Below are positions 44,271 to 51,568 of a stretch of 64,000 nucleotides of DNA, one piece after another. The stretch is from assembly GCA_965203325.1 (NCBI GenBank), contig OZ241875.1, positions 1,664,001 through 1,728,000 of the forward strand, written 5' to 3'. Positions within the stretch are counted from its first letter, which is position 1. Every line of letters begins with the position of its first letter. The notes below the pieces were generated by a model that did not search any database, had not been told where the DNA came from, and saw only the letters and a list, made by a program, of their open reading frames with translations. The translations under genes were made by a program, and so were the position numbers. The stretch is from a bacterium (GTDB taxonomy: Bacteria > UBA8248).

Positions 44271-45266
44271 CTAATTGTCCCGATCGACAATGTAGTCGGC
44301 GACGTCGCGCAGCACGTCGACATGGAAGGAATCCGGCAGAATGGAGAGGGCCGCCTTCCCCGCCTCCACGTATCCCCGCGCCCTGTCGAGGGTGTAGTCC
44401 ACCGCGCCGTACTTGTTCATCAATTCGAGAACGTCGTCCAGGTCTTCCGCCCGGATGTCATCCGCGTGGACCACCAGGTGGTTCAACCGCTCGAACTCCG
44501 CCTCCGTGGCCCGGGCGCAGACCCGGAGCAAGGGCAGCGTCACGTTCCCCTCGCGGAGGTCCTCGCCCACGGATTTTCCCGTTATCTGTGCATCGCCCAT
44601 GTAGTCGAGGGCGTCATCGACGAGTTGAAAGGCGTAGCCGATCTGGACGCCGAACTGGTGGAGCGCGTTCGCTATCGTGGGCGGGCTGTCGGGGATCAGG
44701 GCGCCGACGCGGCAGCTCGCGGCGATGAGGGCCGCCGTCTTGCGGTAGATGACGTCGAGGTATTCCTCTTCGGTGAGCTTCAGGTTGTACATGTTGACCA
44801 GCTGGAGGACTTCTCCTTCCGAGAGCAGGGTGCAGGCCTCGCTCATGGTCTCGATGATCCGCAAGTCGGCGTCCGCGGACATGAGGGAGAAACTCTTGGC
44901 GAAGAGGAAATCGCCCACCAGCACGCTCGTCTCGTTGTTCCACTTCGCGTTGGCGGACGGGTTGCCCCGCCGCATCTGCGCGTCATCCACCACGTCGTCG
45001 TGCAGTAGCGTGGCCGTGTGGATGTACTCTACGACGCAGCCCATCGTCGTGGCGCGGCGCCCCTCGTAGCCGCACGCCTTGGCGACGAGCACCAGGAGCA
45101 TCGGGCGGATTCTCTTGCCGCCGGAGCCGATGAGGTAATCACTCACGTCGGGTATCAGGACGACGTCCGAATGGAAATTCGCGTGAATCGCTTCTTCCAC
45201 TTCCTTCATCTCGGAAGCGATTGAATCGGCAATCTCAGAAAATTTCATTTCGCCTCCGAGCGACAA
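44271..45266 (-). CDS. ispB: octaprenyl/polyprenyl-diphosphate synthase
   Basis: GGKRIRP, EYIHTATLLHDDVVD, VLVGDFL, AFQLVDDALDY, DLREG. Confidence 0.92.
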   Translation of the reverse strand: MSLGGEMKFSEIADSIASEMKEVEEAIHANFHSDVVLIPDVSDYLIGSGGKRIRPMLLVLVAKACGYEGRRATTMGCVVEYIHTATLLHDDVVDDAQMRRGNPSANAKWNNETSVLVGDFLFAKSFSLMSADADLRIIETMSEACTLLSEGEVLQLVNMYNLKLTEEEYLDVIYRKTAALIAASCRVGALIPDSPPTIANALHQFGVQIGYAFQLVDDALDYMGDAQITGKSVGEDLREGNVTLPLLRVCARATEAEFERLNHLVVHADDIRAEDLDDVLELMNKYGAVDYTLDRARGYVEAGKAALSILPDSFHVDVLRDVADYIVDRDN

Positions 45267-45337
45267 AAAACGTCTCCTGAACCGGGGCTTTGATTTCCAC
45301 GACCATTTTCCCCGATACAGGATATCAAAAGCAATTC

Positions 45338-45366
45338 AATCTATTGAGGAGGCCCACGGGTGTCAA
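45338..45366 (-). promoter_or_regulatory. sigma70 promoter of the ispB-maf operon
   Basis: TTGACA-17 nt-TAGATT on the minus strand. Confidence 0.65.
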
Positions 45367-45455
45367 GGCGATGAAACGCCCCTTTTCCTCAAGGCGAAGC
45401 TCGGCTATGTTGCCAGAAACGAGGCGTTTGTCCAACTAACGGGAGAGTTACGGTC

Positions 45456-45833
45456 TTGCAAAGAAAAATCCGGATCACCGCCGGCAGCGTCAGGGTGGAA
45501 GCCGAACTCACGGAGAGCGAAACCGCGAACGCCTTCTGGGAGGCCTTGCCGATCACCGGCGCTGCGAACGTATGGGGCGAGGAAATCTATTTCCAGATCC
45601 CCGTAGACGCGCCGCTTGAGGATTCCGCGCGCGAGGAGATGGAGGTCGGCGAGATCGCCTACTGGCCGCCCGGCAGCGCGTTCTGCATCTTTTTCGGCCG
45701 CACGCCTGCGAGCGTGGACGATGCGCCCCGCGCGGCCAGCCCCGTGAACCCGCTGGGCAGGGTGGCGGGCGACCCGAAAGATTTTCTGAGCGTCCGCTCG
45801 GGAGAAGAGGTTCGCCTGGAGAGAGCATCGTGA
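45456..45833 (+). CDS. cyclophilin-like fold protein (TM1367-like)
   Basis: WGEEIYF, GEIAYWPPGSAFCIFFGRTPAS, ASPVN. Confidence 0.85.
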   Translation: MQRKIRITAGSVRVEAELTESETANAFWEALPITGAANVWGEEIYFQIPVDAPLEDSAREEMEVGEIAYWPPGSAFCIFFGRTPASVDDAPRAASPVNPLGRVAGDPKDFLSVRSGEEVRLERAS

Positions 45834-47083
45834 ATCCCGGTGAGCCGAAAGACCTCTCGGTCCTGGTCCATTACGACGAGATCGGGCTCAAGGGGAAAAA
45901 CCGCCCGCTGTTCATCGAGCGCCTCGCGAAGCGGATCGAACGCGCGGCCTCGTTATTTTGCGAAGCGAAAGTCAGGAAACGCACGGGAAGGCTTGTTCTC
46001 GAAACGAGCGGCCTGGAAGACCCCGACGCTCTGGTAGAGGCCCTCAGGAAAGTATTCGGGGTGGCCTATTTCGCCCGGGCGCAAAGCGTTCCGCTCGACA
46101 TCGAGGCGGCGGCGAAAGTCGCGCTCGAAATGATCGCCCCTCTTAAAACCGAAAGTTTTCGCGTCCGCACCCGGAGATCGTTCCCGGCCACGCCCGTCAG
46201 CACGCGGGAGTGGGACAGGGCCATCGGCGCCGCGATCCAGGCCAGAAGGCACCTGCCGGTCGACCTGGATCGCCCCGGCCTCACGGTGCACGTCGAGGCC
46301 ATCCCGAGGGAAGCCTGGGTGTACGCCGAGAAAATTCCCGGCCCCGGCGGCCTGCCCACAGGCTCGCTCGGGAGGGTGGCGGCGCTCCTCTCGGGCGGCA
46401 TCGACTCCCCCCTGGCCGCCTGGCGGGTCATGAAGCGCGGCTGCGAGGTGGTGTTCATCCATTTTCACGGCGCGCCCTATCTCAGCCGCGCCTCCGCCGA
46501 GAAGGCGAAAGACCTGGCCGGCGTGCTGAACGGCTACCAGCTGGGGAGCAGGCTCTACATGGTGCCGTTCGGCAACCTGCAGAAAGAGATCGTCCTCGCC
46601 ACGCAGCCCGAGTACCGCGTCGTGCTCTACCGCCGGTTCATGGCGCGCATCGGGGAGCGGATAGCCGGGCTCGAGAACGCCCGCGCCCTGGTCACCGGAG
46701 AGAGCCTGGGACAGGTGGCGAGCCAGACGCTGCAGAACCTCGCCGCCATCGAGGACGCGGTGCAGACCCCGATCCTGAGGCCCCTGATCGGCATGGACAA
46801 GGACGAGATCATCGAGGGGGCGAAAGCACTCGGCACGTTCGAGATTTCCATCGAACCCGACCAGGACTGCTGCTCGCTGTTCGTGCCCAAACACCCCGCC
46901 ATCCGCTCGCACGCGGGCCACCTGCGCGGGCTGGAATCGCGCCTGCCCGTCGGGGAGATGATCGAGAAGGTCATCCAGGAGACCGAGATCATCGATTTCG
47001 AAGCGGACGGCCGGACCAGTAATCATTCCTTCGCCGAGATCCATCCCGCTGAAGAGGAAGCGGCCACCGCGCCGAACCCGTAG
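45830..47083 (+). CDS. thiI: tRNA 4-thiouridine synthase (short form without rhodanese domain)
   Basis: HYDEIGLKGKNR, THUMP domain, GPGGLP, LLSGGIDSP, TGESLGQVASQT, DCC. Confidence 0.95.
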   Translation: MNPGEPKDLSVLVHYDEIGLKGKNRPLFIERLAKRIERAASLFCEAKVRKRTGRLVLETSGLEDPDALVEALRKVFGVAYFARAQSVPLDIEAAAKVALEMIAPLKTESFRVRTRRSFPATPVSTREWDRAIGAAIQARRHLPVDLDRPGLTVHVEAIPREAWVYAEKIPGPGGLPTGSLGRVAALLSGGIDSPLAAWRVMKRGCEVVFIHFHGAPYLSRASAEKAKDLAGVLNGYQLGSRLYMVPFGNLQKEIVLATQPEYRVVLYRRFMARIGERIAGLENARALVTGESLGQVASQTLQNLAAIEDAVQTPILRPLIGMDKDEIIEGAKALGTFEISIEPDQDCCSLFVPKHPAIRSHAGHLRGLESRLPVGEMIEKVIQETEIIDFEADGRTSNHSFAEIHPAEEEAATAPNP

Positions 47084-47246
47084 GCAATCGGGCGGACACA
47101 CCGGTCCTCGGCCAGGCGCGGCCTCGGACAGGTCACGACCTGTCCGCTACGGGGTATCGCTTCCTCGGTCGGTTCGATTGCCCCTCACTTGTTGAAAGGC
47201 AACCCCCCCTACCCCGAGGAGAATCCTAAATTCACTCCCCCCTTGA

Positions 47247-48764
47247 AGGGCCTGTTGAAAAACCCCTGGTTTTGTGATCGTATGGAGTTATCCCCCCTCG
47301 CCCGAGATGGGAGTTCCCGAGATGATGGGCAGCAGGAGGCGCGAGCAGATGGAATTGTTCGTGGCCGGTTCCATGGAGCAGTTGATTCCCGAAGATCACA
47401 TATTGCGCCAGGTGGACCTCGTGCTGGATTTGAGCTGGCTTCGCGAGGAGGTGGCGGAGTGCTATTGCGCGGACAACGGTCGACCGGGGATCGACCCCGA
47501 GGTGGTGGTTCGGTTGATGCTGGCGGGTTTTCTGCTGGGCTACGCGCAGGACCGCCGCCTGCTGCGCGAGGCGCAGGCGCATCTGGCGATCCGGTGGTTC
47601 ATCGGTTACGAGTTGCACGAGGAGTTGCCGGATCATTCGAGCCTGACGCGTATCCGCCAGCGGTGGGGGGAGGCGCGCTTCAAGGAGATATTCCGGCGCA
47701 CGGTGCGGGCGTGTCTGGACGCGAGGGTGGCGAAGGGAGAAGTGGTTCACATGGACGCTTCGTTGATACGTGCGGACGTGAGCTGGGAGAGTCTGGCGGA
47801 GCGCCACGCGGAGAAGGTGGTGCGGGAGAACGACTCGGAGGATGAGGGCGGGAAGAAGGGCGGCGGCGGGGGTTCGGGTCCTGTGAGCCGAACGGACCCC
47901 GACGCTCGCCTGGCGCGCAAGAGCGCTCGGGCGGGGTTCGAGCCGAGCTACAAGCACCACGCGGTGGTGGACGATGAGCGGGGCGTTGTCCTCGACGTTG
48001 CGGTGACGGAGGGGACGTTGAACGAGCGGGAGATGATGGAGCCGCAGTTGGATGCGGTTTGCGAGCTCACGGGTCGCGCGCCCGCGGTGGTGACGGCGGA
48101 TTCGGGCTATGCGTACTCGAAGGTGTACGGCGCATTGGAGCGTCGGGGGGTGGACGCGGTGATACCGGCGAAGAAGGAGCCTTCCCAGAGCCGGGTGCCG
48201 TTGCAGCTGTTCCGCTACGATGAGCGTCACAAGGTGGTGAAGTGTCCAGGGGGCAAGACGCTGCGCCCCCGGAAGGAGACGGAGCGGGGTCGCTACTATG
48301 TATCGAGGACGCGCGATTGCGCGGGCTGCGCGCTCAGGGCCGATTGTCTGTCGAAGTCCCGCACGAGCCGGACGGTGCTGGTTCCGCATGAGTATCCGGC
48401 GCTGTTGCGCGCGCGCCGTCGCCACGCGCGCCGTGGGGAGGAGGAGGGTCGGCTGTGGCGCCGGCACATGGGTCGCTCCGAAGGCTATCACGGCGAGGCG
48501 AAGAGTTGGCACGGACTGGGGCGGGCGGTGCGCCGGGGTCTGGACAATATGAAGATCCAGGCCTACCTGACGGCGACTGCGGTGAACCTCAAGCGGCTCG
48601 CCGCCGCTGTTGCGGCGCGTTTATTCGCTCTGTGGAGGGCCTGCGCCGCCCGGAAACGCCGAATGAGCGCCTATCGCGGCTTCACGCACCGATTGGGCTT
48701 GATCTCCCAAGCCGCCTGAGCCGCTATTCAGCCCGCACCAAAACGGGGTTTTTCAACAGGCCCC
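47247..48764 (+). mobile_element. IS1182-family insertion sequence
   Basis: 20-bp TIRs AGGGCCTGTTGAAAAACCCC / GGGGTTTTTCAACAGGCCCC; 4-bp TSD TTGA at 47243-47246 and 48765-48768. Confidence 0.92.
47322..48719 (+). CDS. IS1182-family transposase
   Basis: IPEDHILR, GRPGIDP, PDHSSLTR, HMDAS, TDPDA, ADSGY, EGYHGEAK..HGLGRA..RG. Confidence 0.93.
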   Translation: MMGSRRREQMELFVAGSMEQLIPEDHILRQVDLVLDLSWLREEVAECYCADNGRPGIDPEVVVRLMLAGFLLGYAQDRRLLREAQAHLAIRWFIGYELHEELPDHSSLTRIRQRWGEARFKEIFRRTVRACLDARVAKGEVVHMDASLIRADVSWESLAERHAEKVVRENDSEDEGGKKGGGGGSGPVSRTDPDARLARKSARAGFEPSYKHHAVVDDERGVVLDVAVTEGTLNEREMMEPQLDAVCELTGRAPAVVTADSGYAYSKVYGALERRGVDAVIPAKKEPSQSRVPLQLFRYDERHKVVKCPGGKTLRPRKETERGRYYVSRTRDCAGCALRADCLSKSRTSRTVLVPHEYPALLRARRRHARRGEEEGRLWRRHMGRSEGYHGEAKSWHGLGRAVRRGLDNMKIQAYLTATAVNLKRLAAAVAARLFALWRACAARKRRMSAYRGFTHRLGLISQAA

Positions 48765-48798
48765 TTGAGGGGGGTTATTTCTCATCCGATAAAAATGG

Positions 48799-49227
48799 AT
48801 CAACTCCCCCCTTGAGGGGGAGTCGAAGAGCTAAGGGCGAAGCCCGCAAGCGATTCGGTGGGGGGACATGCCACGGATAGAAGCTCCCCCCACCACATCG
48901 GCCTTCGCATAAACCGCTCAGCTTCTGTCGGGCTTTCCCCTCGGGAAGCCCGACCCCCTCAAGGGGGGAGTTGATTTCCTCTCTCCTTGGGTAGGAGCCC
49001 CGGACAGGTCGCGACCTGTCCCTACAAACCGCAAAATCGCAACGAACCCGTAGGGGCGGCCCCCCGTGGCCGCCCGTATAGAAAACATCCATTCCCGTGG
49101 TTGTCCTTCGTCAGGACAGGCACGGGGGCCTGTCCCTACAGATGCGATTCGGTTTTGTTCGTCATTCCGGGGTTCGGCGGTACATCGAAGGGCCGTCATC
49201 CGCATATTAACCGGCGCAGGGATGACG
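48799..49227. repeat. CCCCCCTTGAGGG-type MITE (48799-48975) followed by GTAG REPs (48991-49139) and a hybrid GTCATT element
   Basis: ATCAACTCCCCCCTTGAGGG ... CCCTCAAGGGGGGAGTTGAT; same family as 2372-2555 and 56017-57567. Confidence 0.82.
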
Positions 49228-49261
49228 TCGGGGGTCGATTTCGACCGAAACGGCTTTGCTG

Positions 49262-49468
49262 GAGTCCGATAATTGTCGTTATCAGAAAATATAACACCTC
49301 TCACGGCCATGTCAAGCGCAATTCCGGCGTCTCCGGAGGGGTTTCGGGCGCCGTTTTGCGCCTATTTTCGTTTATATTTCGCTCGTTTGCGGCCCCAATG
49401 CGCCCCGAATCGGGTTTTTCGGCGGAAAACGGGGCTTCTGGGGGCCGATAACGACAATTAACGGCGCC
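49262..49468. promoter_or_regulatory. candidate invertible promoter segment bounded by two dif-like tyrosine-recombinase sites
   Basis: GAGTCCGATAA-TTGTCG-TTATCAGAAAA (49262-49289) and GGGGCCGATAA-CGACAA-TTAACGGCGCC (49441-49468); internal minus-strand TTGACA (49315-49310)-16 nt-TATATT (49293-49288) with extended TG. Confidence 0.75.
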
Positions 49469-49470
49469 CA

Positions 49471-49600
49471 GGCCGGGAAAGGTGGGCGTATACCGCAGGA
49501 ATCCGCCTCTCGCGGAAAGACTCACTACCGGCCCGGACGATGAAAGGGTTCAAGTCCGCCGTATTTCAGGCGGCCGAAAATACGAATCACCAGTTTGTGA
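49471..49600 (+). other. structured 5' leader of the surface lipoprotein gene
   Basis: Four consecutive hairpins can be drawn by eye (see findings). Confidence 0.45.
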
Positions 49601-49699
49601 AGACCCGAAATGAAAGCTGACGAAAGGAGGTTAATCGGAGAAAGCCGGAAATTCACTGAAAATCCCTTTTTCTACTGTGTATTCAGGAGGACTCACTAA

Positions 49700-51568
49700 A
49701 TGACGTTCAGAGAGAAACCGATAAGCAAGCTTTACGCTTTCGCGCTGGCGGCGGTCTTCGCGCTGACGCTGGCCGGCTGCGGCGGCGGTGGCGGGACGGC
49801 TGCAGTTGAAGAGGAACCGCCCCCGATGCCGACCCCGCAAGAGATGTGCGAGTCTGACGGCGGCCGGTACAATGCGGACGGCACGTGCACCTCGGCTGAA
49901 GACCTGGCTACTGAGCGGGAAGCCAATGCCCTGGCCGCCGCCAAAGCCGCGGCGATGACGGCGTACGAAGCCGCGAAAACGGCGCTGGCCGCCGTCACGG
50001 ACGACGCGAGCCATGACATGGATTCCTACGGCAAGGCCGAAGAAGCCGTGGCCGAAGCGAAGGCGGCGAACGCCGTGGCCCAGGCGGCCACGACCTCCGC
50101 TGCGGCCGAAGACGCCCAGGCGCTCGCCGAGACGGCGCAAGCCAACGCCGAGATGTACGCCGGGATGGTGACGGCAGCGGCAACCAAGGCCGCTGCTCGG
50201 GTGGCGCAAGAGGCGGAGAACAAGGTGGCCGGGACGAAAGGAACGGCCATTGCGGCCGAAGGCACTCAGACGACCGACGCCGGTCTCGGCGGTTCAGATG
50301 CGCCAGCCCCCACAGCCGGGCAGGTTGCAGGCGAATATAACCTAGACATCAAGCATGATGGAGGTCAGGTCGTGACTATCACCATTGAAGGCGCGACCGA
50401 AGATGACAATGAAGTGATCATGGCGAACGACATGGGTATGCACGTTCGCACGCATGATGCGGATGATGACGGCAACGTGATGGAAGAGGTCGTGGTCGTC
50501 AGGACCGACATCGAAGCGCCTAAGGCGGTGGAGTTTGCGAAGTTCGAAGTTATGGCTGCAGACGGAACCGTAACGACGCCTCAAGAGCTGAACGTCAGCA
50601 CCGACACGACCAACGATACTCCTACCGCCACGAATGAAGCTCTGGGAATAGTTGGCGGTAACCTCGGAATGGTCAAGGCCAGCGCGTTCACGGCTCCCGC
50701 CGGAACCGTTGGAACTACCGTCCTTAGTTTCCAGCAGGCGGTAGCAGACGACGCTTCGACAACAGATGTGGATGAAAGCAGGGACGCCGCCGAGCTCGCG
50801 GGCACGTTCAACGGCTCGATGGGAACGTACAAGTGTAACGCTACTGCTGCATGCACAGTTACCGTCAATGCCATGGGTGTCGTAAGCGCCGTTTCGAATG
50901 ACAGTGACTGGGTTTTCATTCCCGCCACAGGCGCAACAACCGACCAGCCGGACTACGACTACTACCACTACGGCTTCTGGCTGAAGAAAACGACGGACGA
51001 AGACGGCGTGCTCACCTACAACGAGGTCGAGACCTTCGCGGGTTCAAGCGTTAACGCGAGCGGCGATGTTGCTACCGTTACGGGAAGCGCGACGTATGAA
51101 GGCGGCGCCGTGGGCGTGTACGTGAAAAACGTGTACAACTCCGACCGCACGCTCGACGTGGCCACCTCCGGCCACTTCACGGCGGACGTCAGCCTGACGG
51201 CGACCTTCGGTCAGGTAAACAATGCTGCCGGTACAGGAACCATCGCGCCGGACAAGCTCAACACCCTCACCGGCACCATCGACAACTTCGCATTGTCCGG
51301 CGGAGAGGATAACGATTGGTCGGTGGCCTTGCAGAGTGACGGTGATCCCAACGCGGCCGGCATCCAGGCCGACAGTGACGGGACCATGGCCGGCACGGCC
51401 AAGGGCGGCGATGGCGACGGCTCGTTCACCGCCATCTACCACGGGAGCCTGACGGCCGCGGCTGATGGAACGATTCCCAAGCCCGGTTCCGTGGTCGGCG
51501 AGTTCAACGCCGGCTTCACGGACGGCACCGTGGCCGGCGCGTTCGGCGCGCGGCGGGTTGACAACTAG
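49700..51568 (+). CDS. large surface lipoprotein with TbpB-like C-terminal beta-barrel
   Basis: AGGAGG RBS; lipobox LAG-C27 followed by GGGGG; Ala-rich helical stalk; ATYEGGAVG, FTADVSLTATFG, C-terminal GEFNA..VAGAFGARR. Confidence 0.85.
   Translation: MTFREKPISKLYAFALAAVFALTLAGCGGGGGTAAVEEEPPPMPTPQEMCESDGGRYNADGTCTSAEDLATEREANALAAAKAAAMTAYEAAKTALAAVTDDASHDMDSYGKAEEAVAEAKAANAVAQAATTSAAAEDAQALAETAQANAEMYAGMVTAAATKAAARVAQEAENKVAGTKGTAIAAEGTQTTDAGLGGSDAPAPTAGQVAGEYNLDIKHDGGQVVTITIEGATEDDNEVIMANDMGMHVRTHDADDDGNVMEEVVVVRTDIEAPKAVEFAKFEVMAADGTVTTPQELNVSTDTTNDTPTATNEALGIVGGNLGMVKASAFTAPAGTVGTTVLSFQQAVADDASTTDVDESRDAAELAGTFNGSMGTYKCNATAACTVTVNAMGVVSAVSNDSDWVFIPATGATTDQPDYDYYHYGFWLKKTTDEDGVLTYNEVETFAGSSVNASGDVATVTGSATYEGGAVGVYVKNVYNSDRTLDVATSGHFTADVSLTATFGQVNNAAGTGTIAPDKLNTLTGTIDNFALSGGEDNDWSVALQSDGDPNAAGIQADSDGTMAGTAKGGDGDGSFTAIYHGSLTAAADGTIPKPGSVVGEFNAGFTDGTVAGAFGARRVDN

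Follow-up and report, generated by a model that had tools for sequence, protein, structure and literature searches.

The segment 49273-49457 of the window (the whole stretch analysed, 64,000 nucleotides from a single-contig genome of 4.39 Mb and 60% G+C) is very probably an invertible promoter cassette with lox-like sites and dedicated recombinases, in which the lipoprotein gene starting at 49700 would be OFF now and ON after inversion. The invertible-promoter reading of this copy, designated W, is strongly supported by (i) flipped paralogs; (ii) one flipped orthologous pair; and (iii) the matching of spacers between the two sites of a pair, that is, by comparison and not by reads. The original prediction described a single switch; the switch stands, but it is one of 16 copies in the genome, a scale that is not visible in the window.

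We propose that two inverted 34-bp lox-like sites flank about 145 bp, within which a single promoter points outward and a terminator-like hairpin faces the other way. A dedicated recombinase would bind the arms of the sites and exchange strands inside the asymmetric 6-bp spacer; because the spacers of the partner sites are identical, an exchange within the spacer would invert the segment. In the present orientation the promoter would fire leftward and leave the lipoprotein gene OFF, while in the inverted orientation a transcript would run from the right site through a leader of about 230 nt into the gene (ON).

The inverted repeat of copy W consists of TAATTGTCGTTATC (49270-49283) and its reverse complement GATAACGACAATTA (49447-49460) and extends imperfectly to 25 nt (84%, 49259-49283 and 49447-49471). 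Each repeat is part of a dyad, GATAA-TTGTCG-TTATC on the left and GATAA-CGACAA-TTAAC on the right, the two spacers being reverse complements of each other. The left lox-like site (49259-49292) is composed of the outer arm CTGGAGTCCGATAA (49259-49272), the spacer TTGTCG (49273-49278) and the inner arm TTATCAGAAAATAT (49279-49292); the right lox-like site (49438-49471) of the inner arm CTGGGGGCCGATAA (49438-49451), the spacer CGACAA (49452-49457) and the outer arm TTAACGGCGCCCAG (49458-49471). The distance between the sites, start to start, is 179 bp, and the crossover spacers are the bounds of the candidate invertible segment. The predicted switch promoter (49288-49315, minus strand) has a TTGACA -35 element, a 16-nt spacer with a TG and a TATATT -10 element. 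It matches the consensus at 11 of 12 positions (two promoter-like sites were found, against 0.4 expected from shuffles), it is directed away from the lipoprotein gene, and its -10 element overlaps the left inner arm. The perfect 14-bp repeat, the dyads, the reverse-complementary spacers and the leftward promoter of the original prediction were thus all found in place. The start of transcription is presumed, from the position of the -10 element, to lie inside the inner arm, in agreement with that prediction.

The rightward strand carries a terminator-like hairpin with a T-run (49346-49373, called by a pattern scan and conserved in the alignment of the 16 copies), then a conserved leader (5' UTR, 49472-49699) that extends from the right site to the start codon, with AGGAGG preceding the ATG, and the controlled lipoprotein gene (49700-51568, 622 aa). 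The inner hairpin with its T-run and the switch promoter occupy opposite strands in copy W, in copy K (there with the hairpin on the other strand) and at locus L065, so that the hairpin can stop transcription toward the switched-off side; in copy W it would presumably shield the gene against transcripts arriving from the left.

The family was found by searching the window genome and related genomes of the genus with 49100-49750, using local BLAST and alignment. The window genome has 16 paralogous copies, named A to O plus W. Common to all 16 are the two sites, about 145 bp between them, about 20 bp of the left flank and at least 60 nt of the leader. TAA-N6-TTA sites number only 166 in the 4.39 Mb, and a genome-wide scan for site pairs, proposed in the original prediction, yielded only 16 pairs spaced 140-220 bp apart, all of them members of the switch family; the spacing is exactly 179 bp in every one of the 15 matched pairs listed. 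The pairing of the sites in copy W is far beyond chance. The 32 sites form 16 inverted pairs at dispersed chromosomal positions, and 16-17 switches are present per genome. The exact 14-mer of copy W does not recur in the window genome, because each copy has its own spacer. The -35 element and the TG of the switch promoter are present in all 16 copies, and the -10 element meets the criteria of the scan in ten and fails them in six; copy W is the best consensus match of the family, and in copy A the consensus scan called no promoter.

Arm consensus sequences were derived from the four half-sites of 32 copies from two genomes, the window genome and its nearest sister genome, G012. These are CTGGAGTCCGATAA for the left outer, CTGGgGgCCgATAA for the right inner, CTGGngnCCGcTAA for the right outer and ATTTTCTGATAA for the left inner arm. 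Three of the four arms share the 14-bp motif CTGG-N3-CCGNTAA, with the arm end ...CYGNTAA, and the left inner arm retains only the last eight bases because its remainder is the -10 element. The sites read better as 34-bp lox-like dyads with 14-bp arms than as the dif-like sites of the original prediction. Inversion leaves one site with two full arms and the other with the weak arm; speculatively, these unequal arms could bias the direction of switching.

In tyrosine recombinases strand exchange requires a core that is identical between partner sites and is free to differ between loci. The spacers of the family fit this requirement, being variable among loci and identical within pairs. Eight spacers occur among the 16 copies of the window genome: TTGACG in four, TTGCCG in three, TTGATG, TTGCTG and TTGCCA (copies I and M) in two each, and TTGTCG, TTACTG and TTGCTA once each. 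The two spacers of a pair are perfect reverse complements of each other in 15 of the 16 copies of the window genome and in 16 of 16 of G012, and they also match within the pair at 13 further loci of other genomes, where additional spacer sequences occur (seven loci that duplicate G012 loci were counted once). The claim that inverted asymmetric spacers dictate inversion is supported. The only mismatched pair, TTGCCA against TTGCCG, belongs to copy M (genome positions 3371422-3371746), in which the recombinase is a remnant only. Copy M is probably a decaying switch, and its mismatch thus points to the decay of some copies. The spacers of orthologs have changed alike in both arms: TTGTCG of copy W corresponds to TTATCG in its G012 ortholog L100, and TTGCTG of copy K to TTGCTA in its G012 ortholog L107.

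Thirteen of the 16 copies of the window genome have the orientation seen in the window, whereas H, K and N, the other three, carry the segment flipped: their outer arms are unmoved and their inner arms exactly swapped, with breakpoints within the 6-bp core. The left junction reads CCGATAA-spacer-TTATCGGCCCC (that is, ...CCGATAA-spacer-TTATCGGCCCCC) and the right junction TTTCTGATAA-spacer-TTAACGGCGG (that is, ...TTTCTGATAA-spacer-TTAACGG...); these are the forms that had been predicted for the ON junctions, found in paralogs rather than in copy W itself. In the flipped copy K the switch promoter is on the strand of its gene. Two of the 16 scorable copies of G012 (L108 and L113) are flipped in the same manner, and split, opposite-strand matches of this kind are also present in genomes G014 and G004. 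The strongest individual piece of evidence is the comparison of copy K with its ortholog L107, which concerns a single locus: the left flank is collinear at 97%, the right flank and the start of the gene are collinear at 89%, and the intervening 206-bp segment aligns on the minus strand, the pieces overlapping only in the two repeats. An inversion has therefore taken place at this locus since the two species diverged.

These flips might in principle be obtained without site-specific recombination, if a small element with terminal inverted repeats had inserted either way or if homologous recombination had occurred between the repeats, and a unit of about 210 bp with imperfect 25-nt terminal inverted repeats is indeed superficially MITE-like. 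The flanks, however, are conserved on both sides in every copy and the unit never occurs in an unrelated context, while in the orthologous flip the flanks are unchanged and there is no target duplication. The breakpoints are always in the 6-bp core and the spacers of partner sites co-vary, neither of which is in line with insertion or with homologous recombination, and repeats of 14-25 bp are, in our judgement, too short for efficient RecA-type exchange. We regard an origin of this kind as extremely improbable, and inversion by a site-specific recombinase remains our reading.

No flipped form of copy W was found among W itself, its G012 ortholog L100 and the W-type copies of genomes G010 and G011. 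The window sequence occurs in 24 public runs, which are labelled sponge metagenomes; over 48700-50300 the contigs of these runs break into pieces of 60-200 nt, with no informative junction at either site, a result that speaks neither for nor against inversion. Exact-pattern scans of JGI metagenome contigs gave no match with the left site and flank of copy W and none with the conserved inner stretch. As a separate observation, both ends of the 1.59-Mb contig C1 of G012 (L103:1-330 and L114:670-1000) fall within the 6-bp spacer of a right site, with a 4-nt overlap, and joined together they form an intact switch in the standard orientation; the contig may have been cut at this switch by disagreeing reads, or this may be a coincidence.

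A scan of the window genome with PF00589 gave 38 hits, none of them within the range of the window, as had been noted from the window alone. This listing of tyrosine recombinases, which the original prediction had suggested, contains a subfamily of six linked to the switches. Each of the six genes is the immediate left-hand neighbour of a switch (copies A, D, E, F, H and J) and is transcribed away from it; adjacency is thus seen in 6 of 16 copies, and no recombinase lies beside copy W. The six proteins share 79-96% identity, and the catalytic R, K, HxxR, W and Y residues are invariant. When a profile of the six was compared with solved structures, Cre was the best match (E 4.6e-14, profile positions 120-370 against Cre 68-338, covering both domains), and Xer-type chains scored about 1e-6 to 1e-7 in the same search. 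Judged by these profile scores, Cre is the closest solved relative of the putative enzyme.

The original prediction had suggested that a Xer-like enzyme acts on dif-like sites, and the chromosomal XerC/XerD pair might have been co-opted for the inversion. The genome does encode a XerD-like and a XerC-like recombinase, and the ATAA-N6-TTAT core with its 6-bp central region resembles dif. Against this, a dedicated recombinase family stands beside 6 of the 16 switches and co-occurs with the switch across the genus, and its members are far under the NCBIfam cut-offs (48.1 bits against 335 for the XerC model, 35.6 bits against 330 for XerD) and only 24% identical to each of the two Xer-like proteins. 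The conserved arm, moreover, reaches 14 bp (CTGG-N3-CCGNTAA). Co-option of the Xer pair is very improbable on these grounds, and the suggestion of a Xer-like enzyme gives way to that of dedicated, Cre-like recombinases.

The co-occurrence was recorded in 23 genomes of the genus, searched for the recombinase (threshold E <=1e-60) and for the DNA of the invertible segment. Both were present in 11 genomes and both absent in 10, the discordant genomes being G004, a 350-contig assembly, and G020; the genomes are related and are not independent samples, and the pattern is therefore supporting evidence only. A diverged repeat pair is carried by locus L069, which could be assigned to G020 only by a guess. 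Loci of more distant relatives, in records titled Binatia, Terriglobia, Vicinamibacterales, Longimicrobiales and Rhodobacteraceae, were checked for a second site. Six of the loci (L072, L080, L081, L084, L088 and L092; the titles of their records name Binatia, Terriglobia and Longimicrobiales) have one perfect GATAA-N6-TTATC dyad about 30-220 nt upstream of the recombinase match, and no partner site is present within 3 kb on either side. These single-dyad loci may represent an ancestral or a different use of the enzyme-site pair. We do not claim two-site switches for the most distant relatives, as a second site is absent upstream within the DNA examined.

Most copies carry, about 20 nt left of the left site and on the strand read from the switch promoter, a hairpin whose 10-bp stem precedes a run of seven U (hairpin-U7; -31.8 kcal/mol, z-score -4.67 against shuffles), which was not called by the pattern scan, its loop being over the limit of the scan. 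In the linked copies hairpin-U7 stands between the recombinase gene and the switch promoter that is aimed at it. The block directly behind the hairpin is conserved even in loci whose proteins are only 66-70% identical, all 12 loci whose alignment begins at residue 1 have a TATACT element there, and TTGGAA-16-TATACT was called as a promoter in L057 and L065. Given this conserved block, we infer that TTGGAA-16-TATACT is a separate promoter of the recombinase and that hairpin-U7 acts as an insulator. The long N-terminal extension of the recombinase ORF (MEIPRRRLY...) would then probably be promoter and 5' UTR, and non-coding. A toggle in which the switch promoter drives the recombinase was considered and set aside in view of the conserved TTGGAA-16-TATACT just behind hairpin-U7.

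The same arrangement bears on the direction of the output. The switch could be real and our ON/OFF assignment wrong or incomplete, with an unrecognised promoter serving the lipoprotein gene or with the main output on the recombinase side; the promoter call is a consensus match only, and in recombinase-linked copies the switch promoter is directed at the recombinase gene. The consensus scan, though, found no plus-strand promoter-like site in 48700-49800, hairpin-U7 (z-score -4.67) separates the switch promoter from the recombinase gene, which seems to be served by a promoter of its own, and the opposing hairpin is always placed against transcription to the non-target side. We therefore consider an error of this kind quite unlikely and retain the assignment of the present orientation of copy W as OFF.

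To the left of copy W lie a cluster of REP-like elements, a DDE transposase and ThiI. The orphan-type flank of copy W (49159-49258), without hairpin and without recombinase, is common to five copies of G012; it takes the place of the hairpin, the recombinase promoter and the recombinase gene of the recombinase-linked copies, and copies A to O of the window genome carry the hairpin-type flank instead. The leftward transcript path of copy W thus lacks the hairpin-U7 terminator that is present in most copies. The ortholog L100 is syntenic (95% to 44795-47103, including ThiI, with the alignment resuming at 49159), has the orientation of copy W and likewise has no recombinase. Copy W was therefore an orphan before the two species separated, and any flipping of it must take place in trans. 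The DDE transposase element (47104-48730) is an insertion relative to L100, where only REP-like repeats separate ThiI from the switch; the ORF of the element (47274-48719, plus strand; Pfam DUF772, DDE_Tnp_1_6 and DDE_Tnp_1) is given for context only. The REP-like elements at 48750-49158, G/C-tract palindromes such as CCCCTTGAGGGGG and similar ones, are very abundant in sponge-metagenome contigs, with a depth up to thousands.

That an orphan switch can be flipped is demonstrated by copy K, as no recombinase match was found beside K or its ortholog L107: K is flipped without a recombinase of its own, and trans action on an orphan switch therefore occurs. Action in trans, as the original prediction had it, is the most likely mode for copy W, and we propose that paralogous recombinases serve it and would continue to flip it. 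It might be argued that copy W is instead a fossil, a member of an invertible family that no longer flips, its gene being permanently silent or driven otherwise. Neither W nor L100 has an adjacent recombinase, a single orientation is seen in the W lineage, and copy M demonstrates that copies do decay. Several features argue against a fossil. The spacers of copy W match perfectly and have changed together relative to the ortholog, and its promoter is the best match in the family. For each of its four arms an identical counterpart, over 19 nt, exists in a recombinase-linked copy (for the left outer arm, for example, in copies A and J). The 622-aa ORF is intact, and orphan K flipped without its own recombinase. 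We consider a fossil switch unlikely, and a working switch served in trans is the reading we follow.

The genes downstream of the switches fall into two groups. Paralogous lipoproteins follow copies W, D, E, F, J, K and L, as a tandem pair at F and J, while proteins of 1000-1800 aa follow A, B, G, I, M, N and O; at C, G and O an additional ORF of 807 aa lies downstream. Three of the latter proteins were scanned for domains: cadherin-like and Calx-beta domains are present in the 1822-aa (A), 1694-aa (B) and 807-aa (C) proteins, and fn3 in those of A and B. In copies B, C, G, M, N and O a 239-aa ORF with an HTH_17 domain lies to the left of the switch, at a distance of about 380-1100 nt (e.g. 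L055:2897-3616); it recurs beside several copies whose recombinase is truncated or absent. The flanks of the switch copies in G012 are mosaics of different copies of the window genome, which hints at shuffling of modules among switch loci.

The last 90 nt or so of the leader are nearly invariant in 15 class-1 copies from two genomes. The structured leader of the original prediction is upheld as far as conservation of sequence goes; its structure gains no support from covariation, none of the 63 pairs predicted in the RNAalifold consensus having a compensatory change. A search of 48000-51000 against Rfam (E up to 1) gave no match. The product of the controlled gene belongs to a paralogous family and has a lipoprotein-type signal ending in LAGC, which bears out the lipoprotein part of the predicted surface lipoprotein; its surface location is deduced. 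The lipoprotein of copy W matches no Pfam family at E up to 10, and a profile of the lipoproteins had no hits among PDB sequences. A C-terminal eight-stranded barrel of the TbpB type (TbpB_B_D / FHBP_C) is a weak lead, with an atlas score of 0.88 against a bar of 0.9, and AlphaFold modelling of the last 200 residues, with nine paralogs as input, gave an unusable model (pLDDT 44). Conservation between copy W and L100 is about 84% over switch, leader and signal peptide, and no DNA similarity is detectable in the body of the lipoprotein (49800-51568), past the first 100 nt or so of coding sequence. This suggests that the exposed part of the lipoprotein has been rapidly diversified or replaced.

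Switches of the fimS type turn a surface structure ON and OFF, and paralogous recombinases can act on other switches. fimS with FimB/FimE and the multi-switch, multi-recombinase set of uropathogenic E. coli (fimS, hyxS and ipuS; PMC6083910) resemble the present family in having a short promoter segment, inverted repeats and adjacent tyrosine recombinases. Unlike these, the switch recombinase is nearest to Cre and scores 21 bits on the NCBIfam FimB/FimE-type invertase models, whose cut-offs are about 220, and the family has full 34-bp dyads, 16-17 switches per genome and a crossover spacer proper to each. In function the switch is that of a fimS-type inverton, while enzyme and site look more like Cre and lox; the scale, with 16-17 switches and six recombinases, is reminiscent of the multi-switch systems of Bacteroides, C. 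difficile and uropathogenic E. coli.

The loxP site of phage P1 is 34 bp long, with two inverted arms of about 13-14 bp and an asymmetric central region whose orientation decides between inversion and deletion. The likeness of the present system to Cre/loxP holds at the level of profiles only, the best match among solved structures being Cre, with both domains aligned; the arm sequence differs, the variable core is 6 bp, and the arms are unequal, the left inner one being largely a -10 element. The sites, furthermore, are paired as a resident gene switch and do not serve plasmid or phage maintenance. XerC/XerD at dif share with the switch a tyrosine recombinase, a dyad, a 6-bp central region and the ATAA...TTAT core. 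dif is a single site at the replication terminus, where it serves dimer resolution, whereas the switch enzyme is no Xer ortholog, its 32 sites stand in inverted pairs and the outcome would be inversion of a promoter. The invertible surface-polysaccharide promoters of Bacteroides and the RecV switches of Clostridioides difficile (PMC10403206, PMC7446863) are similar in their many promoter inversions, in enzymes acting in trans on several switches and in the diversification of the surface of a host-associated bacterium. The recombinase lineage and the repeat sequence are different here, most of the recombinase genes are cis-linked and multiplied (six intact per genome), and the spacer varies by locus, as opposed to one shared repeat.

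More tentatively, and with considerable doubt, we raise the possibility that the 16 switches are coupled into a network in which each is addressed individually, and that the module of recombinase and site has been passed horizontally among unrelated sponge-associated phyla and repeatedly domesticated as a switch of surface proteins. As the arms are shared, any of the six recombinases could service any switch, orphans included, and the locus-specific 6-bp spacers would keep most switches from recombining with one another. Recombination itself would prevent the spacers of a pair from diverging, and the concerted changes between orthologs would be accounted for in this way. The single GATAA-N6-TTATC sites beside relatives of the enzyme in Binatia, Terriglobia and Longimicrobiales records would, on this account, be traces of the horizontal passage. 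With their freely variable core, matched within pairs, the compact lox-like sites and the recombinases that go with them might also prove attractive as a naturally occurring set of orthogonal recombination sites.

Host-associated bacteria classically vary their surface by promoter inversion, which is known mainly from culturable gut and pathogenic species. A full-text literature search, judged from the openings of abstracts, found no switches of such kind in sponge-associated bacteria. Here an uncultured bacterium has 16-17 of them, placed before lipoprotein genes and genes for giant adhesin-like proteins (cadherin-like, Calx-beta and fn3 domains). Living in a filter-feeding host may thus involve a phase-variable surface, directed against phagocytosis, phages or both.
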